In this document: positions 29 to 30,977 of the stretch, piece after piece
Layout: each line of letters starts with the position of its first letter
How positions within the stretch are numbered: the first letter of the stretch is position 1
Source of the DNA: Gemmata obscuriglobus
GTDB taxonomy: Bacteria > Planctomycetota > Planctomycetia > Gemmatales > Gemmataceae
Reading direction: 5' to 3'
NCBI RefSeq assembly: GCF_008065095.1
Contig: NZ_CP042911.1
Location: 1,410,001-1,442,000, forward strand
DNA length: 32,000 nucleotides
Translations under genes and position numbers: made by a program
The notes under the pieces: generated by a model
What the model was told of the DNA's origin: nothing
What the model saw: only the letters and a program-made list of their open reading frames with translations
The model's database searches: none

Positions 29-1732
29 TTGCGGTGCCACCTGGAGTTCGGCGGGGACTTCGCCCGGCTGGCCGAGCGGCTCCGCACCGAAGGGTACGCC
101 CCGCGCCGCCCGGCCGCGCCGGCCACCGCGGGAAGCGACGGGACCGCCGCACCGCCCCCGCCACCGCCACCCGCGCCGAGCGGGGCAGGGGAGGGGGCGA
201 ACGATCCGGAGCCGGTCCACGAGGACTTTCTGGACCCGCACCGGCTCGGGCGGCTGCTGGTGCCGCGGGCGGGCGAGCTGCCCACGGTGATCTACCACCG
301 GGCGGAGTGGTGGGAGTGGCGCGACGGGCGGTACGTGTCGGTGCCCGACGACGACTTCGAGAAGCGGGCGTGGGTGGTGCTGCGGGGCGAGTGCGAGGCG
401 GCGCACCGGGTGGCGGTGGCGGCTTGGGGGCACGGCGGGCGGCAGGGGCCGCGGCCCAAGGTGGTGAAGCTGGACACGCGGAAGGTGGGCAACGCCGTGA
501 CGGCCGCGGCCTCCATGTGCCACCTGGACGGGGCGGTCGCGTGGCCGGTGCTGCTGGCCGCCGACCCGGCCGACGCGGACCACATCCCCCGGCTGCGCCC
601 GGCCCCGGAGCCGCGCGAGTTCGTGGCGTGCGCCAACGGGCTGATCGACGTGGCCGAACTGTTCGCGACCGGCCGCGCGACGCTGCACCCGGCCACGCCG
701 CTGTACTTCACCCCGGCCGCGATCCCGGTCGCGTTCGACCCGGCCGCAGAGTGCCCGACCTTCCTCCGGTTCCTCGACCGGGTGACCGAGGGGGACGCGG
801 AGCGGCAGTCGCTCCTCCAGGAGATCGCCGGGTACTTGCTCCGGTTCGACACCCGCTTTCAGCAGTTTTTCCTACTAACGGGCGACGGCGCGAACGGGAA
901 GAGTACGTTCCTGGCGGCGCTGCGCGCGCTGATCGGCGACCACAACTACGCGTCGGTGCCGCTGGAGGAGTTCGGCGAGCGGTTCACGCTGGGGGCGACG
1001 CTGGGGAAGCTGGTGAACGCGGTGGCCGAGGTGGGGGAGCTGGACAAGGTGGCGGAGGCCAAGCTGAAGAGCTTCGTGGGCGGCGATCTGATGACGTTCG
1101 ACCGGAAGAACAAGGCCCCGGTCTCGGCCCGGCCCACGGCCCGGCTGCTGCTCTCCACCAACACCCCGCCGCGGTTCGCGGACCGCACGGAGGGGGTGTG
1201 GCGGCGGTACCAGTTGGTGCCGTTCACGGCGGTGATCTCGGCGGAGGAGCGGGTGCGGGGGATGAGCGAGCCGGAGTGGTGGGTATCGTCCGGGGAATTG
1301 CCGGGCGTGCTGAACTGGGCGCTGGCGGGGCTGCTGCGGCTGCACCGGGCGAACGGGTTCACGTCCAGCGCGGCGTGCGAGGCGGCGAAGGCCGAGCACC
1401 GGGAGTTGTGCAACCCGCACCGGCTGTTCCTGGGTGAGCACGTGCGGGCGCAGGAGGGCGCGGCGCTGCGGTGCGTGGAGCTGTTCGCGGCGTACGTGGA
1501 GTGGTGCCGGCAGCGGCGGTACTTGCCGCTGGCGGACGGGAACTTCGGGGCGGAGGTGCGGAAGGTGTTCCGCCGGGTGACGAAGTCCCGGCCGCGGAAC
1601 GGCCGGGAGCGGCAGAACGTGTACTCCGGGGTGACGTGGACGGAGGGACGCCCGGACGGGCTGCTGACCGAGTACGACCGCCGCCGCCGGGACGCCACCG
1701 GCTGGACCCCGGACGACGACCGCCCGGGGTGA
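29..1732 (+). CDS. Phage/plasmid primase-helicase, P4/D5 family (SF3 helicase module). The ORF is open to the window edge, so the 5' end is probably missing.
   Basis: No in-frame stop between nt 2 and 29. P4-family primase C-terminal pattern: FLRFLDRVTEGD..QSLLQEIAGYLL, Walker A LLTGDGANGKSTF, LKSFVGGDLMTFDRKNK, LLLSTNTPPRF, WRRYQLVPF. Strong G/C third-position bias. Confidence 0.85.
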   Translation: MRCHLEFGGDFARLAERLRTEGYAPRRPAAPATAGSDGTAAPPPPPPPAPSGAGEGANDPEPVHEDFLDPHRLGRLLVPRAGELPTVIYHRAEWWEWRDGRYVSVPDDDFEKRAWVVLRGECEAAHRVAVAAWGHGGRQGPRPKVVKLDTRKVGNAVTAAASMCHLDGAVAWPVLLAADPADADHIPRLRPAPEPREFVACANGLIDVAELFATGRATLHPATPLYFTPAAIPVAFDPAAECPTFLRFLDRVTEGDAERQSLLQEIAGYLLRFDTRFQQFFLLTGDGANGKSTFLAALRALIGDHNYASVPLEEFGERFTLGATLGKLVNAVAEVGELDKVAEAKLKSFVGGDLMTFDRKNKAPVSARPTARLLLSTNTPPRFADRTEGVWRRYQLVPFTAVISAEERVRGMSEPEWWVSSGELPGVLNWALAGLLRLHRANGFTSSAACEAAKAEHRELCNPHRLFLGEHVRAQEGAALRCVELFAAYVEWCRQRRYLPLADGNFGAEVRKVFRRVTKSRPRNGRERQNVYSGVTWTEGRPDGLLTEYDRRRRDATGWTPDDDRPG

Positions 1733-2168: not shown

Positions 2169-2484
2169 GGTGGTCACCCCCGGTCACCCTCTGGTCACCC
2201 CCGGGTGACCGCCGTAAGTCGTTGCGGCGCAAGGCTTGGTCACCCGCGGTCACCCCGGTCACACCCTCCCTACCCCCCGTAACACTCCGCCGCCCCCCCT
2301 GGCGCGTGTGTAACGAGCGCCGGACCACGTTACACCGGCGACACGTTACACCGGCGAGACGGTGTGCGATGGACAAAAACAGGAAACAGGGTGACCAGGG
2401 TGACCAGGGGTGACCACTCCTTGCGCCGCAAGGAGTTACGGCGGTCACACCCCCCTGCCAACCGGGTGACCGGGGGTGACCACC
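2169..2484. promoter_or_regulatory. Iteron-rich imperfect inverted repeat (arms ~2169-2264 and ~2389-2484) around a ~124-bp core. Putative replication origin or regulatory region.
   Basis: The reverse complement of 2389-2484 matches 2169-2264 along its length (GGTGGTCACCCCCGGTCACCC ... GTGACCGCCGTAA..TTGCGGCGCAAGG..TGGTCACCC..GGTCACCC). There are 11 perfect GGT(C/G)ACC heptamers (2172, 2182, 2194, 2204, 2238, 2248, 2390, 2399, 2409, 2465, 2475) plus 2 near copies. The core holds TGTAAC (2309) and two GTTACACCGGCGA direct repeats (2329, 2345). The region lies between the primase-helicase and the ParB-like gene. Confidence 0.5.
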
Positions 2485-2571: not shown

Positions 2572-3417
2572 ATGACGGAACCGATCCCGGCGCTGCGGTT
2601 CGGGAACGTGACGTACCACTTCCCGTTCGCGCGGCTGATCCGCTCGCACACCGCGCAGGAGCGGGACGAGCTGGCGGCCAGCATCCGCGCGCACAAGCGG
2701 GTGCTGGTGCGGGTGGTGACCTACGACAGCCCTGCGTGGGGCGAGCGGTGCGTGATCGACGGCGCCGCCCGGCTGGAACTGGCCGCCGAGCTGGGAATCG
2801 ACGTGCCGGTGCAGCACCGCGGGCCGCTGGGCGACGAGGCGGCGCGGGCCGAGTGCCTGGCGCTGAACGTGGACCGGCGGCACCTGACGCCCGAGGAGCG
2901 GCAGGCGGTGCGGGCCTCGCGGGTCGAGCGGGTCCGCGCCGCCCGGGACGACGGCCGCTCGCTGCGCGAAATCGCCCGGGCCGAGGGCGTCAGCCCGACC
3001 CAGGTCGCCCGCGACCTCGCCGACGCCGCGCACGCGGGTGTAACCCCCGTTACACCGGAGTCGCGTGTCGCGGGTGTAACGGGGGTTACACCGGAGTCGG
3101 GCGGCGCGGGTGTAACGGGGGTTACACCGGAGTCGCGTGTCGCGGGTGTAACGGGGGTTACACCCGCGCCGGGCGGGGCCGGCGACGACCGGTCGCTGAA
3201 GGCGCTGGAGCGGGGGCTGCGCGCCCTCGTGCGGGCGGACCGCGGGCGGGTGGCCGGGGCGCTGCCGGACCTGCTGCGCGGCCCGCACCGGGAGCGGCTG
3301 GAGCGGATCGCCGCCCGGCACGGGGTGCCGCTGAGCGGGGACCGCTGGCCGCTGATGGACGCGCTGCTGGCGGTGGCGTCGGACCTGCTGGCCGAGATGG
3401 AAGTAAGGCAAAAGTGA
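2572..3417 (+). CDS. ParB/Srx-fold N-terminal domain protein with an HTH segment (ParB-like partition or nuclease-type protein)
   Basis: ATG at 2572 is preceded by GGAGGAG (2557-2563), in frame with track ORF 2476..3417. ParB-like motifs: VIDGAARLELAAELG, ALNVDRRHLTPEERQA, then an HTH-like GRSLREIARAEGVSPTQVARDL. A repetitive GVTGVTPES segment is encoded by the 36-bp palindrome repeats. Confidence 0.7.
   Translation: MTEPIPALRFGNVTYHFPFARLIRSHTAQERDELAASIRAHKRVLVRVVTYDSPAWGERCVIDGAARLELAAELGIDVPVQHRGPLGDEAARAECLALNVDRRHLTPEERQAVRASRVERVRAARDDGRSLREIARAEGVSPTQVARDLADAAHAGVTPVTPESRVAGVTGVTPESGGAGVTGVTPESRVAGVTGVTPAPGGAGDDRSLKALERGLRALVRADRGRVAGALPDLLRGPHRERLERIAARHGVPLSGDRWPLMDALLAVASDLLAEMEVRQK
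3037..3164. repeat. Four tandem 36-bp units, each carrying the palindrome GGTGTAAC-(C/G)4-GTTACACC. Putative protein-binding (parS-like or pac-like) sites inside the ParB-like CDS.
   Basis: Palindromes lie at 3037-3056, 3073-3092, 3109-3128 and 3145-3164, an exact 36-nt (12-codon) period. The arms TGTAAC/GTTACA are perfect in all four. Confidence 0.9.
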
Positions 3418-3434
3418 AAAGGCAAAAGGCACTC

Positions 3435-4012
3435 GCCCTCCCTGAAGGGAGGGGGAGCAAAGGCAACCCACCCCGGCCCCTCCCTGAAGGGAGGGGGTGG
3501 CGCCGGGACGAGTGGTCCCGGAGCGGGAGGGGGCGCGTGCGGGGCAACCTACCCCCCGGCCCCCTCCCTAAAGGGAGGGGGTGGCGCCGAGAGGAGTGGT
3601 CCCGACGCGACACGCGCGCCGAGCGTAGACCAACCCCCGGCCCCTCCCTGCAGGGAGGGGAGCAAAGGCGCCCGGGCACCCGAGGCGGAATCGGTGCGCC
3701 CGTGCCTTCCTCCCCTCCCTGCAGGGAGGGGTTGGGGGTGGGTCGCCCCCGCGTGTTCCTTTCGCACCGGGACCAAGGCGGTCTTCCTCCCCTTCCCTTT
3801 AGGGAGGGGGCCGGGGGGTAGGTTGCCCCGCGCGCGCCTCTCGCACCGGGACCAGCGTTCCCGGCGCCACCCCTTCCCTTTAGGGAGGGGGCCGGGGGGT
3901 AGGTTGCCCCGCGCGCGCCTCTCGCACGGGGACCACTCCTCCCGGCGCCACCCCCTCCCTTCAGGGAGGGGGCCGGGGGGTAGGTTGTCTTTGGGGCCGG
4001 GGGGTAGGTTGC
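3435..4012. repeat. REP/BIME-like array B. Units are in reverse orientation from 3435 to ~3690 and in forward orientation from ~3700 to 4012, so the array is itself a large imperfect palindrome.
   Basis: Repeated CCCTCCCT(G/T)(A/C)AGGGAGGG hairpins with CAACC(C/T)ACCCC / GGGG(T)AGGTTG flanks. Segment 3488-3545 is the reverse complement of the array A spacer (GGTGGCGCCGGGACGAGTGGTCCCGGAGCGGGAGGG). Confidence 0.85.
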
Positions 4013-4042
4013 CTTTGCTCCCGTCATTCTTTCGGTGCGCGC

Positions 4043-4798
4043 ATGAAACTCACTCCCCGGCAGCAGCGGTTCGTGCAGGAGTACCTCGTGGACCGGAGCC
4101 CGTCGGGGGCGGCGGTGCGGGCCGGGTACAGCACGCACTCGGCGCGGAAGATCGGCGAGCAGAACCTGAAGAAGCCGCCGATCGCCGCGGCCATCGCGGC
4201 GGCCACCGGGTGCGCCAAGCCGCCCGAGCGGCCCGCCCTCACCCCGGACGCCGTGCTCCAGCGGCTGTGGCTCATCGCCACCGCCGACCCGAACGAGATC
4301 ATCGAGCACCGCCGCACCTGCTGCCGGTACTGCCACGGGGACGGGCACCGCTACCACTGGACCCAGAGCGAGCTGGACGCCGCCCGCGCCGCCCACGCCG
4401 AAGGCAAGAAGGCCGACGAGCCGTTCGACCCGCTGGGCGGCCCCGGGTACGACCCGCGCCGCCCCCCGGCCCCCAAGTGCCCCGAGTGCTTCGGGGACGG
4501 GGTGGGGGCGGTGTACGTGAAGGACACGCGGCGACTGTCCCCGGGCGCCCGCGCGCTGTGGGCCGGGGTGAAGCAGACCAAGGACGGGGTGGAAGCCCGG
4601 CTCAACGACCAGCAGGCCGCCCTGGTCACCGTGGCCCGGCACCTGGGTATGTTCACGGACGCCGGCGCGGCCAAAGACACGGACCTGCCCGACCTGTCGG
4701 GGATCACCGCCGATGAACTCGACCGACTGCTCGCTGCCCTGCGGCCCCTCTTCGCTCCGCCGCCTGTGGGGGGCGGCGGAACGGGCGGGCGCCCGTGA
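4043..4798 (+). CDS. terS: Terminase small subunit (Terminase_2/P27-like)
   Basis: The N-terminus MKLTPRQQRFVQEYLVDRSPSGAAVRAGYSTHSARKIGEQNLKKPPIAAAI is the canonical small-terminase HTH signature. The gene sits directly upstream of, and overlaps, the large subunit. Confidence 0.85.
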   Translation: MKLTPRQQRFVQEYLVDRSPSGAAVRAGYSTHSARKIGEQNLKKPPIAAAIAAATGCAKPPERPALTPDAVLQRLWLIATADPNEIIEHRRTCCRYCHGDGHRYHWTQSELDAARAAHAEGKKADEPFDPLGGPGYDPRRPPAPKCPECFGDGVGAVYVKDTRRLSPGARALWAGVKQTKDGVEARLNDQQAALVTVARHLGMFTDAGAAKDTDLPDLSGITADELDRLLAALRPLFAPPPVGGGGTGGRP

Positions 4799-6248
4799 CC
4801 TCACCCCGGGCGCGTGGAACGCCCGGTTCCTGCCGCACTACTTCGGCCGGTTCCCGCCCGCGGACTTCCACGCCCTGTTCGACCGCGAGCTGCACAACCT
4901 GCACCTCACCCGCGGGGTGAAGCGGTCCGACATCGCCCCCCGGGGCGGGGCCAAAAGTACGTGGAAGACCCTGGCGTACCCGCTCCGGTGCGCCGCCGAG
5001 GGGTGGGAGCCGTACACCCTGATCCTGTCCGACTCCAGCGACCAGGCCGACCTGCACCTGCGCCACATCCGCAAGGAGCTGGAAGAGAACGAGGTGCTGG
5101 CCGCGGCGTACCCGGAGGCGACCGGGCCGGGGCCGGAGTGGAAGCAGTCGCGCATCCGGCTGCGGAACGGGTCGCTGGTGGAAGCTCTGGGGAGCGGCAA
5201 AAAGGTGCGCGGCCGGCGGAACCGGAGTGAGCGCCCGAGTTTGATCATTTTCGACGACATTCAGAGCAACGAGGACGTGACCAGTCCGGTCATGCGCCGC
5301 CGCGCGTGGGAGTGGGCGACGCGCGAGGTGATCCCGGCGGGGAACGAGCGAACCAACTTCCTGGCGGTGGGCAGCGCGCTGCACCGGGAAGCGGTGGCGG
5401 TGCGGCTGGGGCAGCTCCCGGGGTGGTCCGGGCGGGTCCACCGGGCGGTGCATGCGTGGCCGGAACGGGCCGATTTGTGGGCGGATTTCGAGCGGATCGC
5501 CTCGAACATGGCGGACGACGGGCGGGAGGCGACGGCGCGGGCGTTCTACGCCGAGCACCGCGCGGAGATGGACCGGGGCGGGGTGGTGTACTGGCCGGAC
5601 CGCTTCCCACTCGTTGACCTGATGCTGGTACGCGCGGCGGTGGGCGGCAGCGCCTTCGAGAGCGAGTACCAGGGCGTACCGGGCACGCTGGAGGGGGCCG
5701 AGTGGCCGCCCGAGTGCTTCGACCGGCCGGACCTGTGGTTCACGGACTGGCCGTCGGATTTGGTGGTGCGGCTGCAAAGCCTGGACCCGTCGAAGGGTGT
5801 GAGCGACAAGGCGGACTACCAGGCGCACGTGAAGCTGGGGCTGTCGCGGTTCGGGCTGCTGTACGTGGACGCGGAGCTGCGTCGGGAGCCGGGCTGGGTG
5901 GAGCGGGCGATCGACATCGCGGCGGAGTGGCGGCCGGTGGAACTGGTGGCGGAGGCGAACAACACGATGGGGCTGCTGCGGCCGGCGGCGGAGCGGGTGC
6001 TGCGGGAGCGGCGGGAGCAGGGGCGGGTGCTGTCGTTCGTGTACACGGAGAAGATCAACAGCGCGCCGAAGGCGATCCGCATCCGGGCGCTGAACGACTA
6101 CCTGCGCCGCGGTCAGATCCGGGTGCGCGGCACCCCGGGCGGTCGGGTGCTGGTGGAGCAGCTCCGGGACTGGCCCAACGGCGACCACGACGACGGCCCG
6201 GACGCGCTGGCCACCGCCGTGATCCGCTTGCAGGAACTGGTGGCGTAA
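4713..6248 (+). CDS. terL: Terminase large subunit (ATPase plus RNaseH-like nuclease)
   Basis: Walker A-like PRGGAKSTW and Walker B LIIFDDIQ. C-terminal nuclease pattern LQSLDPSKG..DKADYQA, ELVAEANN, KAIRIRAL, WPNGDHDDGPDALATAV. The start is taken as ATG 4713 (86-nt overlap with terS). No better in-frame ATG/GTG lies before the conserved FHALFDREL, so the start is uncertain. Confidence 0.85.
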   Translation: MNSTDCSLPCGPSSLRRLWGAAERAGARDLTPGAWNARFLPHYFGRFPPADFHALFDRELHNLHLTRGVKRSDIAPRGGAKSTWKTLAYPLRCAAEGWEPYTLILSDSSDQADLHLRHIRKELEENEVLAAAYPEATGPGPEWKQSRIRLRNGSLVEALGSGKKVRGRRNRSERPSLIIFDDIQSNEDVTSPVMRRRAWEWATREVIPAGNERTNFLAVGSALHREAVAVRLGQLPGWSGRVHRAVHAWPERADLWADFERIASNMADDGREATARAFYAEHRAEMDRGGVVYWPDRFPLVDLMLVRAAVGGSAFESEYQGVPGTLEGAEWPPECFDRPDLWFTDWPSDLVVRLQSLDPSKGVSDKADYQAHVKLGLSRFGLLYVDAELRREPGWVERAIDIAAEWRPVELVAEANNTMGLLRPAAERVLRERREQGRVLSFVYTEKINSAPKAIRIRALNDYLRRGQIRVRGTPGGRVLVEQLRDWPNGDHDDGPDALATAVIRLQELVA

Positions 6249-6377
6249 GTGGGGGCGCATCACCTCGGGAACGAACGCGCCCGCCCTGGAACCGCGCACA
6301 CGCGCCGTGTACGTTTGCAGGAACACTTGAAGACGCGAGCCGCCGGACCGACCCGGAACGACTGGAGCGGAACTGCC

Positions 6378-7100
6378 GTGACCGTGGAAGAAGCCGCCCT
6401 CCTTCGCGCCATCGCCGCCGCGCCCGGCGACGTCACGGCCCGGCTCGCGTATGCGGACTGGCTCGACGAGCACGGCCGCGGCATCGAAGCCGCCTGGGTG
6501 CGCGACGAGGGCACGGCCCCGCCGTGGGTGACCGACCTTGCTGGCGAGGGTGACGGTCCTGGCCACAACGCCGGCAACGGTGGGGGCGGCGGCTACGGTG
6601 CCGGCGAGGGCGGTGGCCACGGCGGTGGCGACGGCCGCGGTGAGGGCGACGGCCGCGGTGAGGGCGATGGCGAGGGCGAAGGCGAGGGACACGGCTGCGG
6701 CCTCGGCCCCTACGGTGGGGGGGGCGGCAACGGTGCTGGCTACGGCAACGGCCGCGACTACGGCAACGGCGGCTACGGAACCCCAGACAAGCCCCACATT
6801 ACACACGAGGAAGTTTCCATGCCTTCACCCGGTGCGTATGTGATCGTGCGTTCGCGGGATCAGGGTTGCGTGTGCGGTGAGTACCGGGGTCACCACGGTC
6901 GGGAGGTGGTGCTGGGGAAGGCGCGTCAGATCTATTCGTGGGAGGGCGGTCGTCTGACGCTGTTCGACTTCGCGGTGGTGCCGGGGCCGTGCCGGCTGTC
7001 GCGCGAGGCGCCGGGCGAGGTGGTGATGCTGGAGGCGTGCGGCATCATCCCGACGACGCCCGAGGTCGAGGCGTTCCTGCGCGCGCACCCGGGCGAGTGA
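6378..7100 (+). CDS. TIGR02996-type N-domain / Gly-Asp-rich variable core / conserved C-domain protein (paralog P1)
   Basis: GTG 6378 gives VTVEEAALLRAIAAAPGDVTARLAYADWLDEHGRGIEAAWVRDEG, aligned with the MTDPDEAALLRAI starts of the paralogs. The C-terminal 93 aa (MPSPGAYVIVRSRDQGCVCGEYRGHHGREVVLGKARQIYSWEGGRLTLFDFAVVPG..EACGIIPTTPEVEAFLRAHPGE) are almost identical in P1-P5. Confidence 0.8.
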   Translation: MTVEEAALLRAIAAAPGDVTARLAYADWLDEHGRGIEAAWVRDEGTAPPWVTDLAGEGDGPGHNAGNGGGGGYGAGEGGGHGGGDGRGEGDGRGEGDGEGEGEGHGCGLGPYGGGGGNGAGYGNGRDYGNGGYGTPDKPHITHEEVSMPSPGAYVIVRSRDQGCVCGEYRGHHGREVVLGKARQIYSWEGGRLTLFDFAVVPGPCRLSREAPGEVVMLEACGIIPTTPEVEAFLRAHPGE

Positions 7101-7105
7101 CACCC

Positions 7106-7816
7106 ATGACCGACCCCGACGAAGCCGCGCTGCTCCGCGCCATCGCCGCCGTGCCGGGCGATGTGACGGGGCGGCTCGCGTATGCGGACTGGCTCGACGA
7201 GCACGGGCGCGGGATCGAAGCCGCCTGGGTGCGCGACGAGGGCTTACCCCCGCCCGGCGTGACCGAACTTGCTGGCGACGGTGAAGGCGCTGGTGCGGGT
7301 GACGGCGGCGGCGATGGTGACAACGACCGGGGTCACAACGACGACCTCAACAACGGCCACGGCGATGGCACCGGCAGCGGTGAAAGCCGCGGCGGTTTCG
7401 GCTACTGCGACATCGACGGCACCGGTAGCGGCTTGGAAAGCGGTTACGCCCGCGGCTATGGGAACGGCGGTGGCTACGGCCACGGCGGCTACGGAACCCC
7501 AAACAAGCCCCACATTACACACGAGGAGGTTCCCATGCCGTTGCCGGGTGCGTATGTGATCGTGCGTTCGCGTGACCAGGGTTGCGTGTGCGGCGAGTAC
7601 CGGGGTCACCACGGGCGGGAGGTGGTGCTGGGGAAGGCGCGTCAGATTTATTCGTGGGAGGGCGGTCGGCTGACGCTGTTCGACTTCGCGGTGGTGCCGG
7701 GTGCGTGCCGGCTGTCGCGGGAGGCGCCGGGGGAGGTGGTGATGCTGGAGGCGTGCGGGATCATCCCCACCACGCCCGAGGTCGAGGCGTTCCTGCGGGC
7801 ACACCCGGGCGAGTGA
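7106..7816 (+). CDS. TIGR02996-type N-domain / variable core / conserved C-domain protein (paralog P2)
   Basis: ATG 7106 lies 5 nt after the P1 stop. Same N- and C-terminal blocks. The core (GDGEGAGAGDGGGDGDNDRGH..GFGYCDI.GTGSGLE.GYARGYGNGGGYGHGGYG) is nearly identical to P5. Confidence 0.85.
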   Translation: MTDPDEAALLRAIAAVPGDVTGRLAYADWLDEHGRGIEAAWVRDEGLPPPGVTELAGDGEGAGAGDGGGDGDNDRGHNDDLNNGHGDGTGSGESRGGFGYCDIDGTGSGLESGYARGYGNGGGYGHGGYGTPNKPHITHEEVPMPLPGAYVIVRSRDQGCVCGEYRGHHGREVVLGKARQIYSWEGGRLTLFDFAVVPGACRLSREAPGEVVMLEACGIIPTTPEVEAFLRAHPGE

Positions 7817-7820
7817 GCCC

Positions 7821-8576
7821 ATGACCGACCCCGAAGAGGCCGCCCTCCTTCGCGCCATCGGCGCGGCACCCGGCGAGTTCACGGCGCGGCTCGCGTACGC
7901 GGACTGGCTCGACGAGCACGGCCGCGGCCTCGAAGCCGCCTGGGTGCGCGACGAGGGCACGGCCCCGCCCCGGGTGACCGAACTCGGTGGCAGCGGCCAC
8001 GGCGAGGGCAAAGGCAACGGCGACGGCCAGAGCGACGGCTGCGACTACAGCGACGACGACGACCGTCACGGCGACGACGGCAGCCACGGGGACGGCTACG
8101 GCTACGGCTACGGCGGTCGCAGCTACAGCCACGGCGTCTACGGCCACGGCTACAGCAGCGGCCGCGGCGACGGCCACGGCTACGGCAGCGGCTTAGGCGG
8201 CCGCGGAATCGGCGTAGGCGAAGGGGACGGCGGCCGCGCCGGCCGCATCGCCACACGAAAGCTTCAACACCTGATCCCCCACGAGGAAGTTCCCATGCCG
8301 GTTTCGGGTGCGTATGTGATTGTGCGTTCGCGGGACCAGGGTTGCGTGTGCGGGGAGTACCGGGGCCACCACGGGCGCGAGGTGGTGCTGGGGAAGGCGC
8401 GTCAGATCTTCTCCTGGGAGGGCGGTCGGCTGACGCTATTCGACTTCGCGGTGGTGCCGGGTGCGTGCCGGCTGTCGCGTGAGGCGCCGGGCGAGGTGGT
8501 GATGCTGGAGGCGTGCGGGATCATCCCGACCACGGCTGCGGTGGAAGCGTTCCTGCGGGCGCACCCAGGGGAGTAG
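7821..8576 (+). CDS. TIGR02996-type N-domain / variable core / conserved C-domain protein (paralog P3)
   Basis: ATG 7821 lies 4 nt after the P2 stop. Conserved ends with a different, longer core (GHGEGKGNGDGQSDGCDYSDDDDRHGDDGSHGDGYGYGYGG...). Shares LQHLIPH with P4. Confidence 0.85.
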   Translation: MTDPEEAALLRAIGAAPGEFTARLAYADWLDEHGRGLEAAWVRDEGTAPPRVTELGGSGHGEGKGNGDGQSDGCDYSDDDDRHGDDGSHGDGYGYGYGGRSYSHGVYGHGYSSGRGDGHGYGSGLGGRGIGVGEGDGGRAGRIATRKLQHLIPHEEVPMPVSGAYVIVRSRDQGCVCGEYRGHHGREVVLGKARQIFSWEGGRLTLFDFAVVPGACRLSREAPGEVVMLEACGIIPTTAAVEAFLRAHPGE

Positions 8577-8580
8577 CACC

Positions 8581-8785
8581 ATGACCGACCCCGAAGAGGC
8601 CGCGCTGCTGGCCGCCATCATCGCCGCGCCCGCCGACGACACCCCGCGCCTCGTGTACGCCGACTGGCTCCAGGAGCAGGCCGCGGGATCGAAGCCGCCT
8701 GGGTGCGCGACGAGGGCACGGCCCCGCCCCGGGTGACCGACCTTGCCGGCGACGGTGAAGGCGCTGGCGCGGGCGAAGGGGGAGG
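8581..8785 (+). pseudogene. Chimeric, frameshifted remnant of a TIGR02996-family paralog
   Basis: 8581-8683 is near-identical to the 5' end of the 14657 gene (MTDPEEAALLAAIIAAPADDTPRLVYADWLQEQAA). At GGCCGC it switches, one base short, to the P1-P5-type sequence GGGATCGAAGCCGCCTGGGTGCGCGACGAGGGC...GGCGACGGTGAAGGCGCTGGCGCGGGCGAAGG. The original frame stops at about codon 46, and similarity is lost after ~8785. Confidence 0.75.
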
Positions 8786-8855
8786 GGTGTGTGGCACTGC
8801 GGCGGAAACCGCCCGCCGCCGGTACGGGAGCGCCGGGCGCTCCGGTCGCGCGGGC

Positions 8856-8883
8856 TTGACACGGGAGCGAATTTTACTATGCG
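8856..8883 (+). promoter_or_regulatory. Candidate sigma70-like promoter for the CHAT cassette (TTGACA, 16 nt, TATGCG)
   Basis: This is the only AT-richer patch between the paralog remnant and the first cassette gene. The -35 is perfect and the -10 is weak. Planctomycete promoter rules are poorly known. Confidence 0.2.
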
Positions 8884-8966
8884 GCGGAACCTGACTGCAT
8901 CCGCGGGTGGCGTGCGCTACGCTTGGTACGTTCGCCGTTCACTCCCAACCGTGGCTCGGGGGCAGA

Positions 8967-9302
8967 ATGTCCGACACCGCGCGCGTTGCCGAGCCGCTCA
9001 CGCTGGAACTCGACTTGCCCGGCCCGGCCGACGGGCGGTACGTGGCCCGCGCGGGAGTGCCGTTCGCGTTACGCGTGAGGGGCGACCTCGGTTCCCCGGT
9101 GCCCGCGGAGGTGCTGGTCCTCGGGGCCGGGGTGCGGGCGACGCCGGTGGGCCGCGACGTGCGGCTCCCCGCCGACGCCACCTTCCTTGTGTGCTGCTCG
9201 GCCGCGGGGCCGGCGCACCTACACGTCGAGCTGCTCGTCGGCGGGGAAGAGATGGCCTCCGCCGCGGCGTACCTGTCGGTGCTCCCCGCGCCGGTCGTAT
9301 GA
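8967..9302 (+). CDS. Small beta-rich (Ig/beta-sandwich-like) hypothetical protein, first gene of the CHAT cassette
   Basis: ATG 8967 in frame with track ORF 8907..9302. Alternating beta-strand-like segments (LTLELDL, FALRVRG, AEVLVLGAGVRATP, FLVCCSAAGPAHLHVELLVGG, AAAYLSVLP) resemble the C-terminal domain of the 9957 gene. Confidence 0.55.
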   Translation: MSDTARVAEPLTLELDLPGPADGRYVARAGVPFALRVRGDLGSPVPAEVLVLGAGVRATPVGRDVRLPADATFLVCCSAAGPAHLHVELLVGGEEMASAAAYLSVLPAPVV

Positions 9303-9405
9303 GCGTGCATTCGGCCGACCCTGTCTGGACGCCGGTTGCCAGTTCGACTATCACAAGGGTTTCCAGCCGACCTCTCCGACCGTGCCCTTGTCCGGAGTGA
9401 TCGCA

Positions 9406-9960
9406 ATGCCCATTCGCTCATCGACGGCCCGCGCGCTCCAGCTCGGTGCGGTGATCGCCACCGCGGAGCAGGTGCAGCAAGGTCTGCTTCACGGCCCCGA
9501 CATCACGCTCGGCAGCCGCGCGCGAGCCGCGGCGGGAATCGAAGAGGTCCGCACCCGGCTCCTCGCCGCGGCCCGCGACTTGGACCGGCGGGTGGGTGAG
9601 CGGCTCCGGTCGAGCGTGTCGTGGTGGGTCCAGTTCGTCCTGCTCGTCTTCTTGGTCGCGCTCGGGGTCGGGTTCGTGTTCGCGGCCGTGCGCCTCATGA
9701 CCAGTGAGGACCCGTCGAACTTAACGTACCTGTTCACCGTCGGCCCGCCGCCGCTGGTGGTCTTCCTTCTGAACCAGTTGCGGCGCATGGAGGTCGATCG
9801 GATCACCGTGAGCCTGCTGGCGGCCCGGTTCGTGCCCCGGATCGAGGCGGCCGGGTCGATCGCCGAACTGGAGGCGATCGCGCGCGAAATGTCCGACTCC
9901 TTGCGGCTCCTCACGAACGCGCCGCGCCCGGCCGCCCCGGGGGCAGGACCCCGAACATGA
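9406..9960 (+). CDS. Membrane protein with two predicted TM helices (hypothetical)
   Basis: ATG 9406 is preceded by GGAG (about 9 nt). Hydrophobic stretches WWVQFVLLVFLVALGVGFVFAAV and YLFTVGPPPLVVFLLNQL. The stop overlaps the next start (ATGA at 9957-9960). Confidence 0.6.
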   Translation: MPIRSSTARALQLGAVIATAEQVQQGLLHGPDITLGSRARAAAGIEEVRTRLLAAARDLDRRVGERLRSSVSWWVQFVLLVFLVALGVGFVFAAVRLMTSEDPSNLTYLFTVGPPPLVVFLLNQLRRMEVDRITVSLLAARFVPRIEAAGSIAELEAIAREMSDSLRLLTNAPRPAAPGAGPRT

Positions 9961-11375
9961 GCAAGAAGATCAAGGAGCTGGAGCTGAACAGCCTCCGCAA
10001 GACCTTCCAGGGCGTGCGGGACTTCGTGCTGCTGGAGCCGCTGAAGCTGGACTCCGCGGCCGACTACACGCTTCGCAAGAGCCTTCGCGAGAAGAAGGTT
10101 CGCGTGAAGATGGTCAAGAACAGCTTCGTGCGGAAGGTGTTCAGCGAGAACGGCATGACGGTGGAGACGGGCTCCGGCCCGACCCTTCTGTGCTGGGGGG
10201 CCGACAGCGCGAAGTCCCTCGGGACCGCGGTGGAGGCGGCTCTCAAGCTGATCCGCCCGGACCTGAAGGTGCCCGAGAAGGTCAAAGAGAAGGTCGGCAT
10301 CGCCGACGGCGAGACCATGACCCTGGCGCAGCTCGCCAAGGTGCCGACCAAGCAAGAGGCGATCGGCGAAGTCCTCGCCGCGGTGCTCGCGCCGGGCGCC
10401 GCGCTGGCCGGGGCGCTCACGGCGCCGGGTGCGGACCTCGCGGGCATCCTCAAGGCGGTCCAGGGCGTGCGGGCGCAGAGGACCCCCGCGGCCGTCGCGG
10501 TGGGGGCGACGGATTCGGCGTGGGCGAGTGAACCCGCCCCTTCTGTGCCGGGTCCGTTCGTGCGGCCGGCGGCCGGCGCGGGCGCCCGGTTGCCCTTGCC
10601 TTCTGTGCCGCGGCCGCCGAACAATGGTGTAGAGCCAGGGGCCGCTCCGGTCCGCTCTTCGGTTCGGAACGCGGAACCGGACCCGGAGGTCGCGCTGCGA
10701 GCGCTGGAGCGGTGGCTGCCGCTGTTGCACGGGATCGGCGCCGGACGGGCGCCGGAGCGCGTGCGCACGATCTGGGGCGAGCACGTCCGGAACGAGCTGT
10801 TCCGCAGCCCCCCGGCGGTCGCCTGGCTCGATCAGTGCTTGGCCGCCCGGCCGTCATTTGCACCTCAGAGGGCCGCGGCACTCGAGGCGCTGCGGCGGGT
10901 GCGGGCCGAGGTGCGGGACGAGTTGACCGGGTTGGGCGAACAACTCGCCCCTCAAGCGGAGGGAACATCGCCCCCCAACGGGGGAAGCGAAATGGATCAG
11001 TTCATCCTGGTTCTGGAGATCGGCGCGCGGGACGGCGGACCCTTGACCGTGGGGCACGAAGCGACCCTGCGGGCGGTGGTCGCGAAAGCTGACGTGGCGA
11101 ACACGGAAGATCACTACAACGGCCACTACAACTGGGTGCCGGCGGGGCCCGGGGAGGTGGTGGCGGTGCGGGTGTTCGCGACCGGCAGCCGGGTGCTCCC
11201 GGCCGAGCGGTACCTCTCGACGCCCCCGCAACCGGGCCAGTCCGTCGAGTTCACGTTCCGGCCCCGGGCCGCCGGCCGGCAGTACCTGCACCTGGCCCTC
11301 GTGGACCGGCACGACTCCGACGTGTACACGGCGTCCCAATACTTCACCGTCGAGCCGGCCGCCGCTGTCGGCTGA
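9957..11375 (+). CDS. Ribosomal protein uL10-like N-domain fused to a Pro/Ala-rich linker, a helical segment and a C-terminal beta-sandwich-like domain
   Basis: Residues 1-~170 follow uL10 by eye: VLLEPLKLDSAADYTLRKSLREKKVRVKMVKNSFVRKVF, GPTLLCWG, LAKVPTKQEAIGEVLAAVLAPGAALAGAL. No rplK/A/L or rpoB neighbours. The C-terminal 128 aa (from MDQFILVLEIG, nt 10992) are beta-rich. Confidence 0.7.
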   Translation: MSKKIKELELNSLRKTFQGVRDFVLLEPLKLDSAADYTLRKSLREKKVRVKMVKNSFVRKVFSENGMTVETGSGPTLLCWGADSAKSLGTAVEAALKLIRPDLKVPEKVKEKVGIADGETMTLAQLAKVPTKQEAIGEVLAAVLAPGAALAGALTAPGADLAGILKAVQGVRAQRTPAAVAVGATDSAWASEPAPSVPGPFVRPAAGAGARLPLPSVPRPPNNGVEPGAAPVRSSVRNAEPDPEVALRALERWLPLLHGIGAGRAPERVRTIWGEHVRNELFRSPPAVAWLDQCLAARPSFAPQRAAALEALRRVRAEVRDELTGLGEQLAPQAEGTSPPNGGSEMDQFILVLEIGARDGGPLTVGHEATLRAVVAKADVANTEDHYNGHYNWVPAGPGEVVAVRVFATGSRVLPAERYLSTPPQPGQSVEFTFRPRAAGRQYLHLALVDRHDSDVYTASQYFTVEPAAAVG

Positions 11376-11441
11376 GCCCGGCGCCGCGCGCCGCGAACGC
11401 GCGGCCTCGGCGCCCGCCACCCTTTCGGTCACGCCACCGTC

Positions 11442-12962: not shown

Positions 12963-13135
12963 CACCTCTGCACCACTGATCCGTGGGACACATCGTAGGG
13001 TCTTGGGCTGCCGGATCGCTCCTCATTTACGGGTACGACGCTGGTACACGAGACGGTGCTCGCCCGCGCGCGTGATCCCGGGCTCGTCGAGCGGCGCGCC
13101 GCCGGCACGTGGCGCCTGGAACCATCGGGGCGAGT

Positions 13136-13939
13136 ATGACCACCGACGAGGCCGCGCTGCTTCGCGCCATCGCCGCGCACCCGGGCGAGGTCACCGCGCG
13201 GCTCGCGTATGCGGACTGGCTCGACGAGCACGGCCGCGGGATCGAAGCCGCCTGGGTACGCGACGAGGGCACGGCCCCGTGGGTGACCGAACTCGGCGGC
13301 GGCGATGGTGACGGTGGCTGCGACGCCGACGGCACCGGCACCGGCGATGACCACGGCAGCGGTAACGGCGATGGTGACGGCGACGGCTACGGTGACAGCA
13401 ACGGCGACGGCTACGGCGACGGTACGAACTGCGGCGACGGCGCCGGCCGCGGTGACGGCCGCGGCTACGGCGCCGGCGGCGGGGGCAGCGAAATCCACGA
13501 CTACAGCATCCGCGGCGGCAACCACGGCTACGGCCGCGGCTACGGTTACTGCTACGGCGACAGCGACGGCGACGGCGACGGCAACGGTCAAGGCCACGGC
13601 TACAACCCCATCGCCGCGCACAATCTGCAACACCTGATCCCCCACCAGGAGGTTCACATGCCGGAGTCGGGTGCGTACGTGATCGTGCGTTCGCGGGATC
13701 AGGGTTGCGTGTGCGGTGAGTACCGGGGGCACCACGGCCGTGAGGTGGTGCTGGGGAAGGCGCGCCAGATCTACTCGTGGGAGGGCGGTCGGCTGACGCT
13801 GTTCGACTTCGCGGTGGTGCCGGGTCCGTGCCGGCTGTCGCGTGAGGCGCCCGGGGAGGTGGTGATGCTGGAGGCGTGCGGGATCATCCCGACCACGCCC
13901 GAGGTCGAGGCGTTCCTGCGGGCGCACCCGGGCGAGTGA
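13136..13939 (+). CDS. TIGR02996-type N-domain / variable core / conserved C-domain protein (paralog P4)
   Basis: ATG 13136 (MTTDEAALLRAIAAHPGEVTARLAYADWLDEHGRGIEAAWVRDEG). Longest core (GDGDGGCDADGTGTGDDHGSGNGDGDGDGYGDSNGDGYGDG...). Conserved C-terminal 93 aa. Confidence 0.85.
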   Translation: MTTDEAALLRAIAAHPGEVTARLAYADWLDEHGRGIEAAWVRDEGTAPWVTELGGGDGDGGCDADGTGTGDDHGSGNGDGDGDGYGDSNGDGYGDGTNCGDGAGRGDGRGYGAGGGGSEIHDYSIRGGNHGYGRGYGYCYGDSDGDGDGNGQGHGYNPIAAHNLQHLIPHQEVHMPESGAYVIVRSRDQGCVCGEYRGHHGREVVLGKARQIYSWEGGRLTLFDFAVVPGPCRLSREAPGEVVMLEACGIIPTTPEVEAFLRAHPGE

Positions 13940-13944
13940 CACCC

Positions 13945-14652: not shown

Positions 14653-14656
14653 CACC

Positions 14657-24297: not shown

Positions 24298-24891
24298 ATG
24301 AGCACCCTTCTTGCGCCGGCTCCGGTTCCCGATCCTGCGCCCGTGGCGGTCCGCCCGGCGGTGCCGGGTGACTGGACGTTCCTCGACCACCTCCAGCGGT
24401 TGCACCACCACGCCATCGGGTTCCTGTCACGTGCCGCGCTGGGCGAGGCCATCGACCGCGGGCGGGTGCTGCTGGCGCTGGAGAACGGCTTGCCGGCCGG
24501 GTACCTGTACGCCGCGCCGCGCTACCACCGGCGGGCGGACGTGGCCGTGATCTATCAGGCGGCGGTGAGCTTCGATGCGCGGCGCCGGCACCTGGGCACC
24601 GGTCTGGTGCGGGCGTTCGCGGAGCGGTTGCCGGCGACGGTCGGGCAGGTGTCCCTGTGGTGCGCCGCGGACCTGGAGGCGGGCGGGTTCTGGTCGGCGC
24701 TGGGGTTTACGCCGGTGGCGATGCGGGCCGGGGCGCACAACAAGCGGACGCACGTGTTCTGGTGCTGTAACCCCCGTTACACCGGGTCGGGGCCGGTGGG
24801 GACGTTCTGGGTGCCGGAGGCGACGCGCGGCGGTGTGGTCCGCGCCACCCGTACGGTGACGCGCCTCGCGCCGGCGCGGGGCGAAGGTTAG
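24298..24891 (+). CDS. GNAT-family N-acetyltransferase
   Basis: VRPAVPGDWTFLDHL.., YQAAVSFDARRRHLGTGLVRAF (Q/RxxGxG/A acetyl-CoA motif), LEAGGFWSALGFTPV. Contains one TGTAAC-CCCC-GTTACA palindrome near its 3' end. Confidence 0.7.
   Translation: MSTLLAPAPVPDPAPVAVRPAVPGDWTFLDHLQRLHHHAIGFLSRAALGEAIDRGRVLLALENGLPAGYLYAAPRYHRRADVAVIYQAAVSFDARRRHLGTGLVRAFAERLPATVGQVSLWCAADLEAGGFWSALGFTPVAMRAGAHNKRTHVFWCCNPRYTGSGPVGTFWVPEATRGGVVRATRTVTRLAPARGEG
24766..24783. repeat. Isolated copy of the TGTAAC-CCCC-GTTACACC palindrome
   Basis: Same arms and spacer as the first copy in the ParB-like gene (3039-3056). Inside the GNAT CDS (codons CNPRYT). Confidence 0.85.
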
Positions 24892-25383: not shown

Positions 25384-25401
25384 CTGTAACCCCCGTTACA
25401 G
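25384..25401. repeat. Isolated copy of the palindrome CTGTAAC-CCCC-GTTACAG at the inner edge of array D
   Basis: 7-nt arms are perfect. The spacer CCCC matches that at 3037 and 24766. Confidence 0.85.
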
Positions 25402-30948: not shown

Positions 30949-30977
30949 CATTTTCCGCCCGCTGCCATCGGCCGGGC

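Follow-up and report, generated by a model that had tools for sequence, protein, structure and literature searches.

Palindromes inside the gene for an orphan ParB-like protein of a Gemmata obscuriglobus prophage remnant are putative loading sites for that protein

A prophage remnant in the Gemmata obscuriglobus chromosome, with host genes on its flanks, carries four identical 20-bp palindromes inside a gene for an orphan ParB-like protein. This arrangement raises two questions: whether the palindromes are maintained as DNA or are a by-product of the peptide they encode, and, if they are DNA sites, which protein reads them. We examined the 32,000-nucleotide stretch of DNA that holds the gene (the window) together with related loci in bacterial genomes, metagenomes and viral contigs. 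The features of the window are collected in Table 1.

Table 1. Palindromic sites and relevant genes in the 32-kb window.
Feature	Position	Strand	Remarks
D5/P4-type primase-helicase	29..1732	+	N-terminus beyond window edge
Three half-sites	2308..2351	GTGTAAC 2308 (+); GTTACAC 2329 (-), 2345 (-)	227-265 bp upstream of start codon
Gene for 281-aa orphan ParB-like protein	2572..3417	+	ParB/Srx N-domain (about 1-110), HTH (about 128-153), linker, helical C-terminal domain (about 203-280)
HTH recognition-helix coding sequence, S141-A153, SPTQVARDLADAA	2992..3030	+	AF2 helix 142-155; similar to P1 ParB HTH
36-bp (12-codon) tandem array	3033..3164	+	Codes disordered linker, residues about 156-198 (TRF, AF2, codons)
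Dyad copy 1, GGTGTAAC-CCCC-GTTACACC	3037..3056		Exact match; codes G156-P162 (GVTPVTP)
Dyad copy 2, GGTGTAAC-GGGG-GTTACACC	3073..3092		Exact match; spacer orientation opposite to copy 1
Dyad copy 3, GGTGTAAC-GGGG-GTTACACC	3109..3128		Exact match
Dyad copy 4, GGTGTAAC-GGGG-GTTACACC	3145..3164		12-bp extended arms CGCGGGTGTAAC...GTTACACCCGCG, 3141-3168
TerS (Terminase_2), TerL	4043-4798; 4713-6248	+	Start of late operon directly downstream of ParB-like gene
Outlying dyad GCTGTAAC-CCCC-GTTACACC	24764..24783		One mismatch to GGTGTAACNNNNGTTACACC; C-terminal tail of GNAT ORF (24298-24891)
Outlying dyad CTGTAAC-CCCC-GTTACAG	25384..25401		7-bp arms; intergenic; right-hand edge of prophage remnant

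A motif scan of the window returned the four exact GGTGTAACNNNNGTTACACC matches of the array, and none of 100 dinucleotide-preserving shuffles contained any match. The copies share the form GGTGTAAC-N4-GTTACACC at a spacing of 36 bp, with none expected by chance, and differ in the spacer, which is CCCC in the first copy and GGGG in the other three. Tandem Repeats Finder reported a period of 36 with 3.7 copies, and all four dyads are read in frame 0 of the gene, giving the peptide GVT(P/G)VTP(E/A). An earlier note on this DNA had described four phased palindromes 36 nt apart within a ParB-like gene; exact matches, shuffles and repeat analysis confirmed the palindromes and their regular period, but not phasing in the helical sense. 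The period equals 12 codons or about 3.4 helical turns, so that neighboring sites point to different sides of the helix. As the array of one relative (L059) has a period of 42 bp, the spacing is set by the reading frame rather than by helical phasing.

Related sites occur elsewhere in the window. The 16-bp core TGTAAC-N4-GTTACA was found six times against none expected (the array four, 24766 and 25385), and the heptamer GTGTAAC 13 times against 1.15 expected. Half-sites that had been noted at 2309-2352 are indeed present and are kept in G. algarum (L112). The dyad in the GNAT reading frame is read in another frame than the array dyads and has an identical counterpart in G. obscuriglobus contig L175. 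In the intergenic dyad the outer base pair is altered symmetrically.

The ParB assignment of the protein comes from fold and not from curated sequence models, since Foldseek matched the N-domain plus HTH of the AF2 model to KorB, ParB, Noc and Spo0J with probability 1.0 (E 1e-4 to 1e-3; top match KorB, 8qa9), whereas the ParB models of Pfam and NCBIfam matched below their cutoffs only (TIGR00180, 18.7 bits vs a cutoff of 58.45). Pfam ParB_N gave a match solely in the relative L030 (E=0.0024). The protein is thus predicted to have a ParB/KorB/Noc-type N-domain fold plus an HTH, which supports the ParB/Srx-type N-domain proposed from the sequence earlier. The HTH was closest to that of P1 ParB (E=0.001) and also matched HTH_38 (E=4.9e-5); the first dyad begins 6 codons past L149 of its recognition helix. 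Residues R24, G64-A-A-R67 and N99-V-D-R102-R103 were invariant in a 9-sequence alignment, and these motifs align with DG.TR and RRQL of the ParB-domain protein 5k5a (PDB). R24, G64/R67 and N99/R102/R103 may therefore be read as ParB Box I, II and III of a putative nucleotide pocket, the putative Box II having a single Arg vs GERR in canonical ParB. PADLOC made no defense-system call for the ParB-like proteins.

The codons of the array indicate that the dyads are under selection at the DNA level. Given the peptide and the codon usage of this genome, the joint probability of the arm codons GGT, GTA, GTT and ACA is 2.8e-6 per copy. Codons ending in A or T account for 18 of 46 in the array vs 9 of 236 in the rest of the gene, and the dyad codons are rare in the 71 %-GC host genome. 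Between loci, the Val codons GTA and GTT exchange jointly with the dyad preserved, and the flanking Ser (TCA) and Glu (GAx) codons come from the extended dyad. The dyads are kept by selection as DNA, beyond the coded peptide. Together with an AF2 pLDDT of about 30 for residues 157-204 (77-93 for residues 1-100), the codon test bears out the suggestion that a DNA signal is housed in a disordered linker.

To see what accompanies the site, related loci were collected by DNA and by protein. A search by DNA motif alone found seven loci (L112, L067, L059, L030, L020, L060 and L125) of 0.41-0.73 GC, and in all seven the dyad sits inside a member of the same protein family, in frame 0, shortly after the HTH. 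Every one of the homologues found by protein alone and read at the DNA level (L001, L171, L172, L174, L003, L007, L008 and L203) has a perfect N4 dyad 4-13 codons past the recognition helix; such dyads occur at a background rate of 0.8 per kb. Dyad-bearing loci span 41-74 % GC and come from Planctomycetota, a beta-proteobacterial MAG and viral contigs. By sequence comparison, phages of several bacterial phyla share the pairing of gene and site. Most relatives have one dyad only. The constant position of the dyad relative to the HTH favors ancestry over insertion, as would apply to REP- or MITE-type palindromes. Across 162 kb of Gemmataceae-type DNA, dyads of the six arm classes described below all lie in ParB-like genes, except for the two at the right end of the window, and one Gemmata stretch is among the at least 120 genome matches listed.

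The neighbors of the gene are less constant. Identical arms lie beside a Terminase_2 TerS in the window (PF03592) and beside a GP3_package, P22-gp3-type TerS in L030 (PF16677). They are also found with no terminase nearby, in a replication module (L059) and beside a LexA-like repressor (L203). Across these loci the neighbors change and the gene is constant.

The pairing has limits. The two best homologues examined from cultured phages, vB_MseS-P1 gp19 and Rivra gp59, have neither the dyad nor the peptide footprint described below, and the site is therefore not universal in the wider family. These two proteins and L030 are fused to MT-A70. A metagenome scan with the family alignment yielded a single locus, L171, and viral-contig searches found no relatives of the metagenomic homologues P0005, P0006 and P0008. 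In a 50.7-kb viral contig (IMGVR_UViG_3300047160_014427) the same dyad occurs 16 times, between genes; tblastn and a 155-sequence HMM were run on 42 of its 50.7 kb and found no family member, and the 509-aa methyltransferase of this contig has no recognizable ParB or HTH part. Searched in the literature, the motif string matched unrelated primers or sequences only.

The arms themselves fall into six classes: GGTGTAAC, GGTGTTAC, GGTGTATC, TGAAAC, TGAACC and TGAACA. We refer to GGTGTTAC/GTAACACC as the swapped class; another is GGTGTATC/GATACACC. At least three classes were confirmed on DNA and several more are predicted. The inner six pairs were complementary in 90 of 90 cells, with no G-T pairs and no one-sided changes, a statistic that is partly circular because motif-found loci match by construction, and for which three dyads were picked by a dyad search. 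Four arm positions vary between lineages, each on both sides. The outer arms GGTGT/ACACC are conserved across phyla and over the whole range of GC, and the orientation of the spacer flips freely (CCCC/GGGG, AAAT/ATTT). A scan for the swapped-arm pattern gave 23 matches, all singletons; one lay 2.3 kb from a ParB_N-methyltransferase gene without an HTH and was taken as chance.

The site also leaves a trace in the protein. A peptide footprint, G[VI]xxxT[PVR] directly after the helix, was present in 38 of 127 representatives against an estimated chance expectation of about 1 in 127; the family has 1182 representatives at E<=1e-10, and the share of about 30 % applies to the top representatives. 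GVSGDTP was predicted to encode a dyad, and the DNA confirmed it. The recognition helix reads S(L/P)GQ(V/I)QRD in 11 of 11 members of the GVSxDTP class, has Val at position 3 in all swapped-type loci and is variable inside the GVTxVTP class, and phylogeny confounds these links of arm class with helix. One G. obscuriglobus assembly holds two related elements whose protein alleles are 53 % identical and whose dyads differ, which excludes a host factor as the reader. A host-wide repeat is likewise disfavored, given two dyad types in one assembly and no extra copies in the 162 kb.

We consider it probable that the dyads are putative parS-, bisS- or OB-like loading sites for the ParB-like protein of their own gene, the two forming a one-gene cassette that acts in cis and in trans. 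With the cis site inside the trans-acting gene, recombination cannot part the two. At each dyad of 20-24 bp a dimer would dock with both of its HTH domains, the half-site centers being 11 bp apart. By analogy with ParB, KorB and BisD, nucleotide binding by the N-domains may then close the dimer into a clamp, which could leave the dyad and spread over flanking DNA. The four tandem sites would serve as a loading zone of high capacity immediately 5' of the late operon (terS-terL-portal), and the two outlying sites may mark the element's far end. The output is likely to be control or organization of the neighboring phage DNA, by late-gene regulation or by bringing in a partner or a fused enzyme, conceivably the MT-A70 methylase of relatives; it is probably not ParA-driven segregation. 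Binding of the protein to the dyads, nucleotide binding, clamp formation and the biological output are the parts of this scheme that we infer.

A broader role can be put forward tentatively. The protein might load in its own linker DNA, spread, label the phage genome as self and direct an activity there, which could be the MT-A70 methylase in relatives and, in the Gemmata elements, activation of late genes or recruitment of the terminase. On this view the cassette would be widespread, arm classes together with recognition helices would make up a specificity code that insulates co-resident elements, and in some phages the loading site may have been copied into almost all intergenic gaps.

Against loading of the gene's own protein, the dyads could be operators or 'stoperators' of another regulator, for example a LexA- or CI-like repressor, that gate early-to-late transcription. 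LexA-type sites typically have the format of a 16-bp dyad with an N4 spacer, and repressors with LexA_DNA_bind and S24 domains are encoded by the relatives L001, L007 and L203. In L001, two GTGTAA/TTACAC-heptamer dyads lie directly upstream of the repressor gene, and the 50.7-kb viral contig has its dyads between genes, in the manner of Cluster A stoperators and Cluster O dyads. We nevertheless find this reading unlikely, as the site always goes with the ParB-like gene, including in contigs with no visible repressor, and its arm class follows the ParB-like recognition helix, an association confounded by phylogeny. The LexA-like repressor was set aside as the reader and kept as a rival: in L001 the heptamer is the same, but the dyads near the repressor are everted and A-type, whereas the in-gene dyad is T-type. 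No repressor gene was seen in the window, the left part of the element lying beyond it.

The gene's position next to the terminase genes suggested to the earlier note a pac site. On such a site the small terminase, perhaps assisted by the ParB-like protein, would start headful packaging. Pac sites are often located within or next to terS and can take the form of repeat arrays. The terS-terL pair is directly 3' of the gene in 6 of 7 homologue loci with recorded neighbors, and also in L030 and L171; the P0005 contig has an intervening 144-aa gene without a Pfam match. However, identical arms beside two unrelated TerS families and at the terminase-free loci L059 and L203 led us to drop TerS as the leading candidate for the reader, so that this part of the note was not supported, while its 'parS-like' alternative, taken as a cognate site for the gene's own protein, is the reading best supported by the comparative evidence. 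Most relatives have a single dyad, the distance to terS varies from about 250 bp to 2.2 kb, and the Gemmata remnant retains four perfect copies despite having no capsid and tail genes. A pac function is accordingly quite improbable.

Equally improbable is that the palindromes act as hairpins, either mRNA stem-loops for attenuation, processing or stability, or ssDNA or cruciform structures, with no protein site on double-stranded DNA. Strict arm complementarity and compensatory changes would fit a stem, and the array folds far above shuffles (z = -8.9). The viral-contig copies lie a few bases past stop codons, and the same stem is an obvious terminator hairpin in unrelated bacteria. A pure stem, however, needs no conserved primary sequence such as that of the outer arms across several phyla. 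G-U pairs are missing from all 90 inner-pair cells, and an RNA loop would be altered by the free spacer flips. At the array, a terminator scan found no terminator-like site and no U-tract, and Rfam gave no match at the gathering threshold; a sigma-70 promoter scan was uninformative.

Two further readings have very little in their favor. A true partition centromere, of ParABS type or sopC-like, of an episomal phage form would account for a tandem array of palindromes resembling F sopC and for the ParB-type fold, and parS sites are known inside or beside parB. This sense of the earlier note's wording found no support: there is no ParA-type Walker A (KGGxGK[ST]) in six frames of the window, the 2572-3417 protein has no ParA-binding motif ([LFI]G[KR]G[LFI]) and falls far under the TIGR00180 cutoff, and the remnant is chromosomally integrated. 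The gene tables of L001, L007 and L008, which sit in contigs of 0.57-10 Mb as chromosomally integrated elements, likewise contain no ParA-type Pfam family. The array could instead be a set of origin iterons in a replication-associated gene: four linker-coding dyads next to a primase-helicase gene resemble the lambda layout, with half-sites, GGTGACC repeats and an A-rich patch just upstream. This is just as doubtful, as the protein has a ParB fold and no initiator fold, most relatives have one dyad and no adjacent replication genes, and no AT-rich unwinding element adjoins the array, which is followed by GC-rich sequence. That the palindromes are incidental to a repetitive peptide linker (GVTGVTPES) would agree with the in-frame repeat and the recurrence of the peptide among homologues, but the codon and covariation tests in effect refute it, and the segment is predicted to be disordered.

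Phages and prophages are rich in orphan ParB-fold proteins, a large subfamily of which gains a testable candidate DNA target, one that is legible from the protein sequence alone (GVxxxTP). The natural arm-class variants make binding, nucleotide gating and spreading testable with short oligonucleotides. The case is also one of a cis-acting DNA element that overrides codon usage and dictates a conserved peptide, which matters for annotation, since the 'conserved motif' is no protein feature.

Several known systems resemble the proposed loading site. The Gemmata protein shares with ParB the order of N-domain, HTH, linker and C-terminal domain, its putative site is likewise a palindrome, and parS lies inside spo0J of B. 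subtilis, while F sopC is an array of 12 palindromes of 43 bp. The closest HTH is that of P1 ParB, whose box A, ATTTCAC, is similar to the half-site GTTACAC. The Gemmata locus differs from ParB-parS in lacking ParA and the ParA-binding motif, in a 20-24 bp dyad with a free 4-bp spacer vs a contiguous 16-bp parS, and in belonging to integrated prophages whose proteins match the family models below cutoff. In lambda ori, four dyad repeats lie in the linker-coding part of gene O and are bound by the gene's own protein. The placement of dyad repeats in the linker-coding part of the putative binder's gene is shared, but lambda O belongs to an initiator family that acts in replication, whereas the Gemmata array has no adjacent AT-rich region and its relatives are single-copy.

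BisD of ICEclc in Pseudomonas putida loads at 23-bp palindromes inside genes of the integrated element, and its clamps spread into the late genes (PMC12409273). Its CTP binding and ChIP occupancy are demonstrated, whereas nucleotide binding and loading by the Gemmata protein are predicted; BisD additionally carries an activator domain and works with a partner, BisC (PMC12409273). The bisS sites lie in inrR and ssb and not in bisD, unlike the Gemmata dyads in their own gene (PMC12409273), and have no sequence relationship to them. In both cases an orphan ParB-like protein of a chromosomally integrated mobile element is accompanied by long palindromes in coding sequence (23 bp with 11-bp arms in bisS), few per element (PMC12409273). 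KorB-OB of RK2 and VirB-virS are ParB-fold CTP switches that control transcription; they load at palindromes scattered over a mobile element and control distant genes, as the Gemmata protein of similar fold may do, and KorB differs in acting with KorA/TrbA and IncC (PMC11790492, PMC10770331).

Among phages, the Cluster O dyads of mycobacteriophages (TGTTCGG-N3-CCGAACA) are intergenic and present in many copies, like those of the 16-copy viral contig, in a genome that encodes a ParB-like protein; the stoperators of Cluster A lack symmetry and are bound by the repressor, and the window sites differ from both clusters in being grouped inside one gene (PMC4351075). A 2025 survey of orphan ParB-CTPase-fold proteins and ParB-methyltransferase fusions in phages and prophages, which left them functionally unexplained, describes no cognate DNA sites, the string 'palindrom' occurring zero times in its text (PMC12704722). 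The Gemmata protein falls in the same broad class, prophage-enriched and with relatives fused to MT-A70, and relative to that survey (PMC12704722) the in-gene dyad is a new element.

Exact matches to GGTGTAAC-N4-GTTACACC began at 3037, 3073, 3109 and 3145, 36 bp apart, within the ParB-like gene (2572-3417, forward strand). None of 100 dinucleotide-preserving shuffles matched the pattern. These results confirm the earlier note's four palindromes with a 36-bp period, and the upstream half-sites it reported were also real. Its description of the copies as phased did not hold: 36 bp is 12 codons, or about 3.4 helical turns, and a relative's array has a period of 42 bp, so it is the reading frame that dictates the period, rather than helical phase. 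Copy 1 has CCCC as its spacer and copies 2-4 have GGGG; since these are reverse complements, the dyad unit is present in both orientations. In relatives with 98 % identity, array changes fell mostly in the spacers and between the copies; in Gemmata sp. JC717 one array copy was decayed. Most relatives have one or two copies, and the four in the window's lineage are a local amplification.

Location of dyads, repeats and homologues. Positions are window coordinates unless a locus (L-number) is named.
Feature	Location	Remarks
Tandem array	3033-3164	Tandem Repeats Finder
Three half-sites	2308, 2329, 2345	upstream of ParB-like gene
Outlying 16-bp core	24766	C-terminal tail of GNAT ORF, other reading frame
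Outlying 16-bp core	25385	intergenic; outer arm pair symmetrically altered, CTGTAAC...GTTACAG
REP-like arrays	1740-2175, 3420-4020, 24980-25380, 30480-30950; L001 10715-10840	
Motif-found homologue locus		G. algarum, four copies
Motif-found homologue loci		one MAG each: Gemmataceae, Thermoguttaceae, Planctomycetaceae
Motif-found homologue locus		Alcaligenaceae MAG, two copies
Motif-found homologue loci		two viral contigs, 41-43 % GC
ParB-HTH-MT-A70 homologue	L178 7950-9748	Mesorhizobium phage vB_MseS-P1, early region, adjoins second ParB gene
ParB-HTH-MT-A70 homologue	L179 37657-40103	Agrobacterium phage Rivra, early region, adjoins PAPS-reductase-like (IbrA-type) gene
Unrelated-genome stems	L065, L084, L167	Opitutaceae STC_40
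Unrelated-genome stems	L085, L109, L157	Fibrobacter
Unrelated-genome stems	L135, L143	Caproiciproducens
Unrelated-genome stems	L069, L082, L083, L099, L136	Mitsuokella

The conserved signal is the DNA and not the peptide. Among synonymous codons in the window's genes, the arm codons GGT, GTA, GTT and ACA have shares of 8 %, 3 %, 5 % and 2 %, giving a joint probability, given the peptide, of 2.8e-6 per copy. Codons ending in A or T numbered 18 of 46 in the array versus 9 of 236 elsewhere in the gene. The Frigoriglobus locus (L001) encodes the same peptide as the window, GVTPVTP, from GGTGTTAC-CCCC-GTAACACC; the dyad is kept there because both Val codons are exchanged. Across loci the dyad reaches arms of about 10 bp (CAGGTGTAAC-N4-GTTACACCTG), and the palindrome also accounts for the Ser (TCA) and Glu (GAx) codons on either side in 'SGVTxVTPE'.

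The gene product has 281 aa. Its AlphaFold2 model was confident for residues 1-155 and disordered at 157-204 (pLDDT ~30), with a helical C-terminal domain. The array encodes residues 156-198 and thus the disordered linker, as had been proposed from the sequence. The ParB/Srx fold was likewise upheld, by a Foldseek probability of 1.0 to KorB, Caulobacter ParB, Noc and Spo0J across the N-domain and HTH, with curated sequence models below their cutoffs: Pfam yielded HTH_38 only, and TIGR00180, with a cutoff of 58, scored 18.7 bits. The HTH of the window protein was closest, by sequence profile, to that of P1 ParB (E=0.001). R24, G64/R67 and N99/R102/R103 were invariant in the family alignment, and in our reading they probably correspond to the key positions of Box I, II and III.

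A 20-mer pattern was scanned over viral and genome collections, with the swapped-arm pattern (L001 type) as control. Among the matches listed, most were single and consistent with chance. At least seven independent matches to the standard pattern, the window's own, lay inside homologues, in frame 0 and soon after the HTH recognition helix. The control scan yielded 23 matches, all single and none of them within a family linker. Loci found by protein carried swapped arms in L001, L171 and L172, standard arms in L174, and four copies of GGTGTATC-N4-GATACACC in L203. Three Gemmata homologues seemingly without the motif each had a perfect N4 dyad 7-13 codons past the helix (TGAACA-GGGG-TGTTCA, TTGAACC-CCCC-GGTTCAA and TGAAAC-GGAC-GTTTCA), compared with a background of 0.8 such 6-N4-6 dyads per kb in this DNA. 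Dyads of the six arm classes in 162 kb of Gemmataceae-type DNA all lay within ParB-like genes, apart from the two at the right end of the window, and each locus held its own class only. Over 15 sites the inner six pairs were complementary in 90 of 90 cells, and four arm positions varied, each on both arms, with no change confined to one arm and no G-T pairs; the count is circular in part, since sites found by motif necessarily match and three dyads came from a dyad search, and its independent part is the protein-found loci.

The wider family comprised 1182 representatives at E<=1e-10. The peptide footprint G[VI]xxxT[PVR] occurred within 75 residues past the helix in 38 of the 127 top representatives with a recognisable helix, where we estimate about 1 by chance. 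GC-rich members had G or P as its middle residue (GGGG/CCCC) and AT-rich ones N or F (AAAT/ATTT), in each case one spacer read in its two orientations. The helix S(L/P)GQ(V/I)QRD was common to all 11 members of the GVSxDTP class, and the prediction that GVSGDTP is a dyad footprint was afterwards confirmed on DNA. The majority of distant family members had a second conserved peptide motif, G-x-D-G-K-x-Y-(P/S), 5-100 residues past the footprint; it was seen in L030, L059, L060, L067, L125, L174, L203 and many further protein homologues, and was absent from the window protein.

Neighbours varied between dyad loci and the ParB-like gene was constant. Identical arms adjoin a Terminase_2 TerS in the window and a P22-gp3-type TerS at L030, where the ParB-like protein is fused to an MT-A70 methylase; at L059 they lie in a replication module without terminase, and at L203 they adjoin a LexA-like repressor gene. 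Position 3 of the helix was Val in all three swapped-arm loci and never in standard-arm loci. The most economical reading of these sequences is that the gene's own HTH is the predicted reader of the dyad. The rivals considered were a repressor operator or stoperator, a pac site (one option of the earlier note), an RNA or single-stranded DNA hairpin, a ParABS centromere, an origin and a peptide-only repeat. Copies 1 (CCCC) and 3 (GGGG) are mutually reverse complementary, spacer included (3037-3128), and the predicted single-strand fold therefore pairs both over ~28 bp, with copy 2 forming a hairpin inside. A ParABS centromere was the note's other option; no ParA-type Walker A motif was found in any frame of the window and no ParA-binding motif in the ParB-like protein. 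A peptide-only repeat is dismissed by the codon evidence. A host factor was also excluded as reader, because a pair of related elements in a single G. obscuriglobus assembly encode protein alleles 53 % identical and carry different dyads.

IMGVR_UViG_3300047160_014427 (L013, L016, L022, L029, L043), a 50.7-kb phage contig of GC 0.61 with portal and head protease/capsid genes, held 16 copies of CAGGTGTAAC-ACCT/AGGT-GTTACACCTG in both orientations, nearly all in short intergenic gaps. A family member was not detectable in 42 of its 50.7 kb. A 5-kb contig of the same sample, _008159 (L033), had three copies. The dyad was absent from the homologues in two cultured phages (L178, L179), both alpha-proteobacterial. 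The site-less homologues and the 16-copy contig count against the dyads being loading sites for the protein of their own gene, and are among the main difficulties of that reading.

Further sites were seen elsewhere. Immediately upstream of a Frigoriglobus prophage LexA-like repressor gene (L001 1807-1822 and 1853-1868) were two (G)TTACAC-N4-GTGTAA(C) dyads, the window's heptamer everted. At L141 6840 and L149 992, in two Streptomyces genomes of GC 0.76, GGTGTAAC-CCCC-GTTACACC was accompanied by part of the extended consensus, in what seems a conserved locus of two species; no family member was detected there. The dyad's 8-bp stem recurred in unrelated genomes, in terminator-like hairpins (A-run/stem/T-run) or a longer repeat with 16-bp arms, ACCGCTTTGGTGTAAC-GATC-...; those in Opitutaceae, Fibrobacter, Caproiciproducens and Mitsuokella are convergent hairpins with no tie to ParB-like genes.

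G. obscuriglobus contigs matched the window at 99.98-100 % identity. Its phage genes comprise a D5/P4-type primase-helicase, the ParB-like gene, TerS (Terminase_2), TerL, a TIGR02996/DUF6948 paralogue block and a portal gene. Beyond the portal gene they end, followed by a low-GC stretch, a GNAT gene, REP-like repeats and a host response regulator and phytochrome kinase; the element is thus a chromosomal prophage remnant. The paralogues between TerL and portal gene (6249-15442), an unusual insertion in a packaging module shared with Gemmata sp. JC717, have N-termini ('LAYADWLDEHG') that we take to be of TIGR02996 type, Gly/Asp-rich repeats and a C-terminal DUF6948, and alternate with paralogous genes of ~260 aa. 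The stretch at 21500-24200, flanked by the last phage-like genes and by the GNAT gene, has GC 0.53-0.61 versus 0.71 overall, and its ORFs had no Pfam or PHROG match. GC-rich REP-like arrays (palindrome CCCCCTCCCTTCAGGGAGGGGG then CCGGGGGGTAGGTTGCC, periods 41-129 bp) fill intergenic gaps around the ParB-like gene and at the prophage edge; because Frigoriglobus has the same unit, this is apparently an intergenic repeat found throughout the Gemmataceae. Between the primase and ParB-like genes, the 'origin core' of the earlier note (2170-2470) holds GGTGACC/GGTCACC heptamers (GGTNACC), about twelve in all and several of them in short tandem runs, along with an A-rich patch (2370-2385) and a palindrome with 10-bp arms (2416-2436); it is a separate repeat system adjoining the GTGTAAC half-sites.

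On the model of ParB, KorB and, above all, BisD, each dyad would be a docking site for dimers, whose ParB-type N-domains would close into a clamp upon nucleotide binding; closed clamps would then spread to flanking DNA. A site within the linker-coding segment would bind cis site and trans factor into one recombination-proof unit, the disordered linker tolerating the imposed peptide. Downstream, the protein might control late genes, deliver an enzyme that is fused to it or acts as its partner, or organise DNA.

Precedents include parS inside parB (B. subtilis spo0J), the F sopC array and P1 box A. New here is that a large orphan subfamily has a conserved dyad within the gene, whose arm classes are symmetric and which can be read from the protein as a peptide footprint. 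A 2025 survey of the ParB-CTPase fold listed as unexplained both the orphan ParBs of phages and prophages and the methylase fusions, with cognate sites unmentioned (PMC12704722). KorB, VirB and BisD are ParB-fold clamps serving regulation (PMC11790492, PMC10770331, PMC12409273). BisD, an orphan ParB-like CTP clamp of the integrated element ICEclc, loads at 23-bp palindromes inside genes, spreads ~50 kb and turns on late promoters (PMC12409273). The system described here, in which loading is predicted, resembles BisD/ICEclc in its orphan ParB-like protein, its integrated element and its palindromes inside genes.
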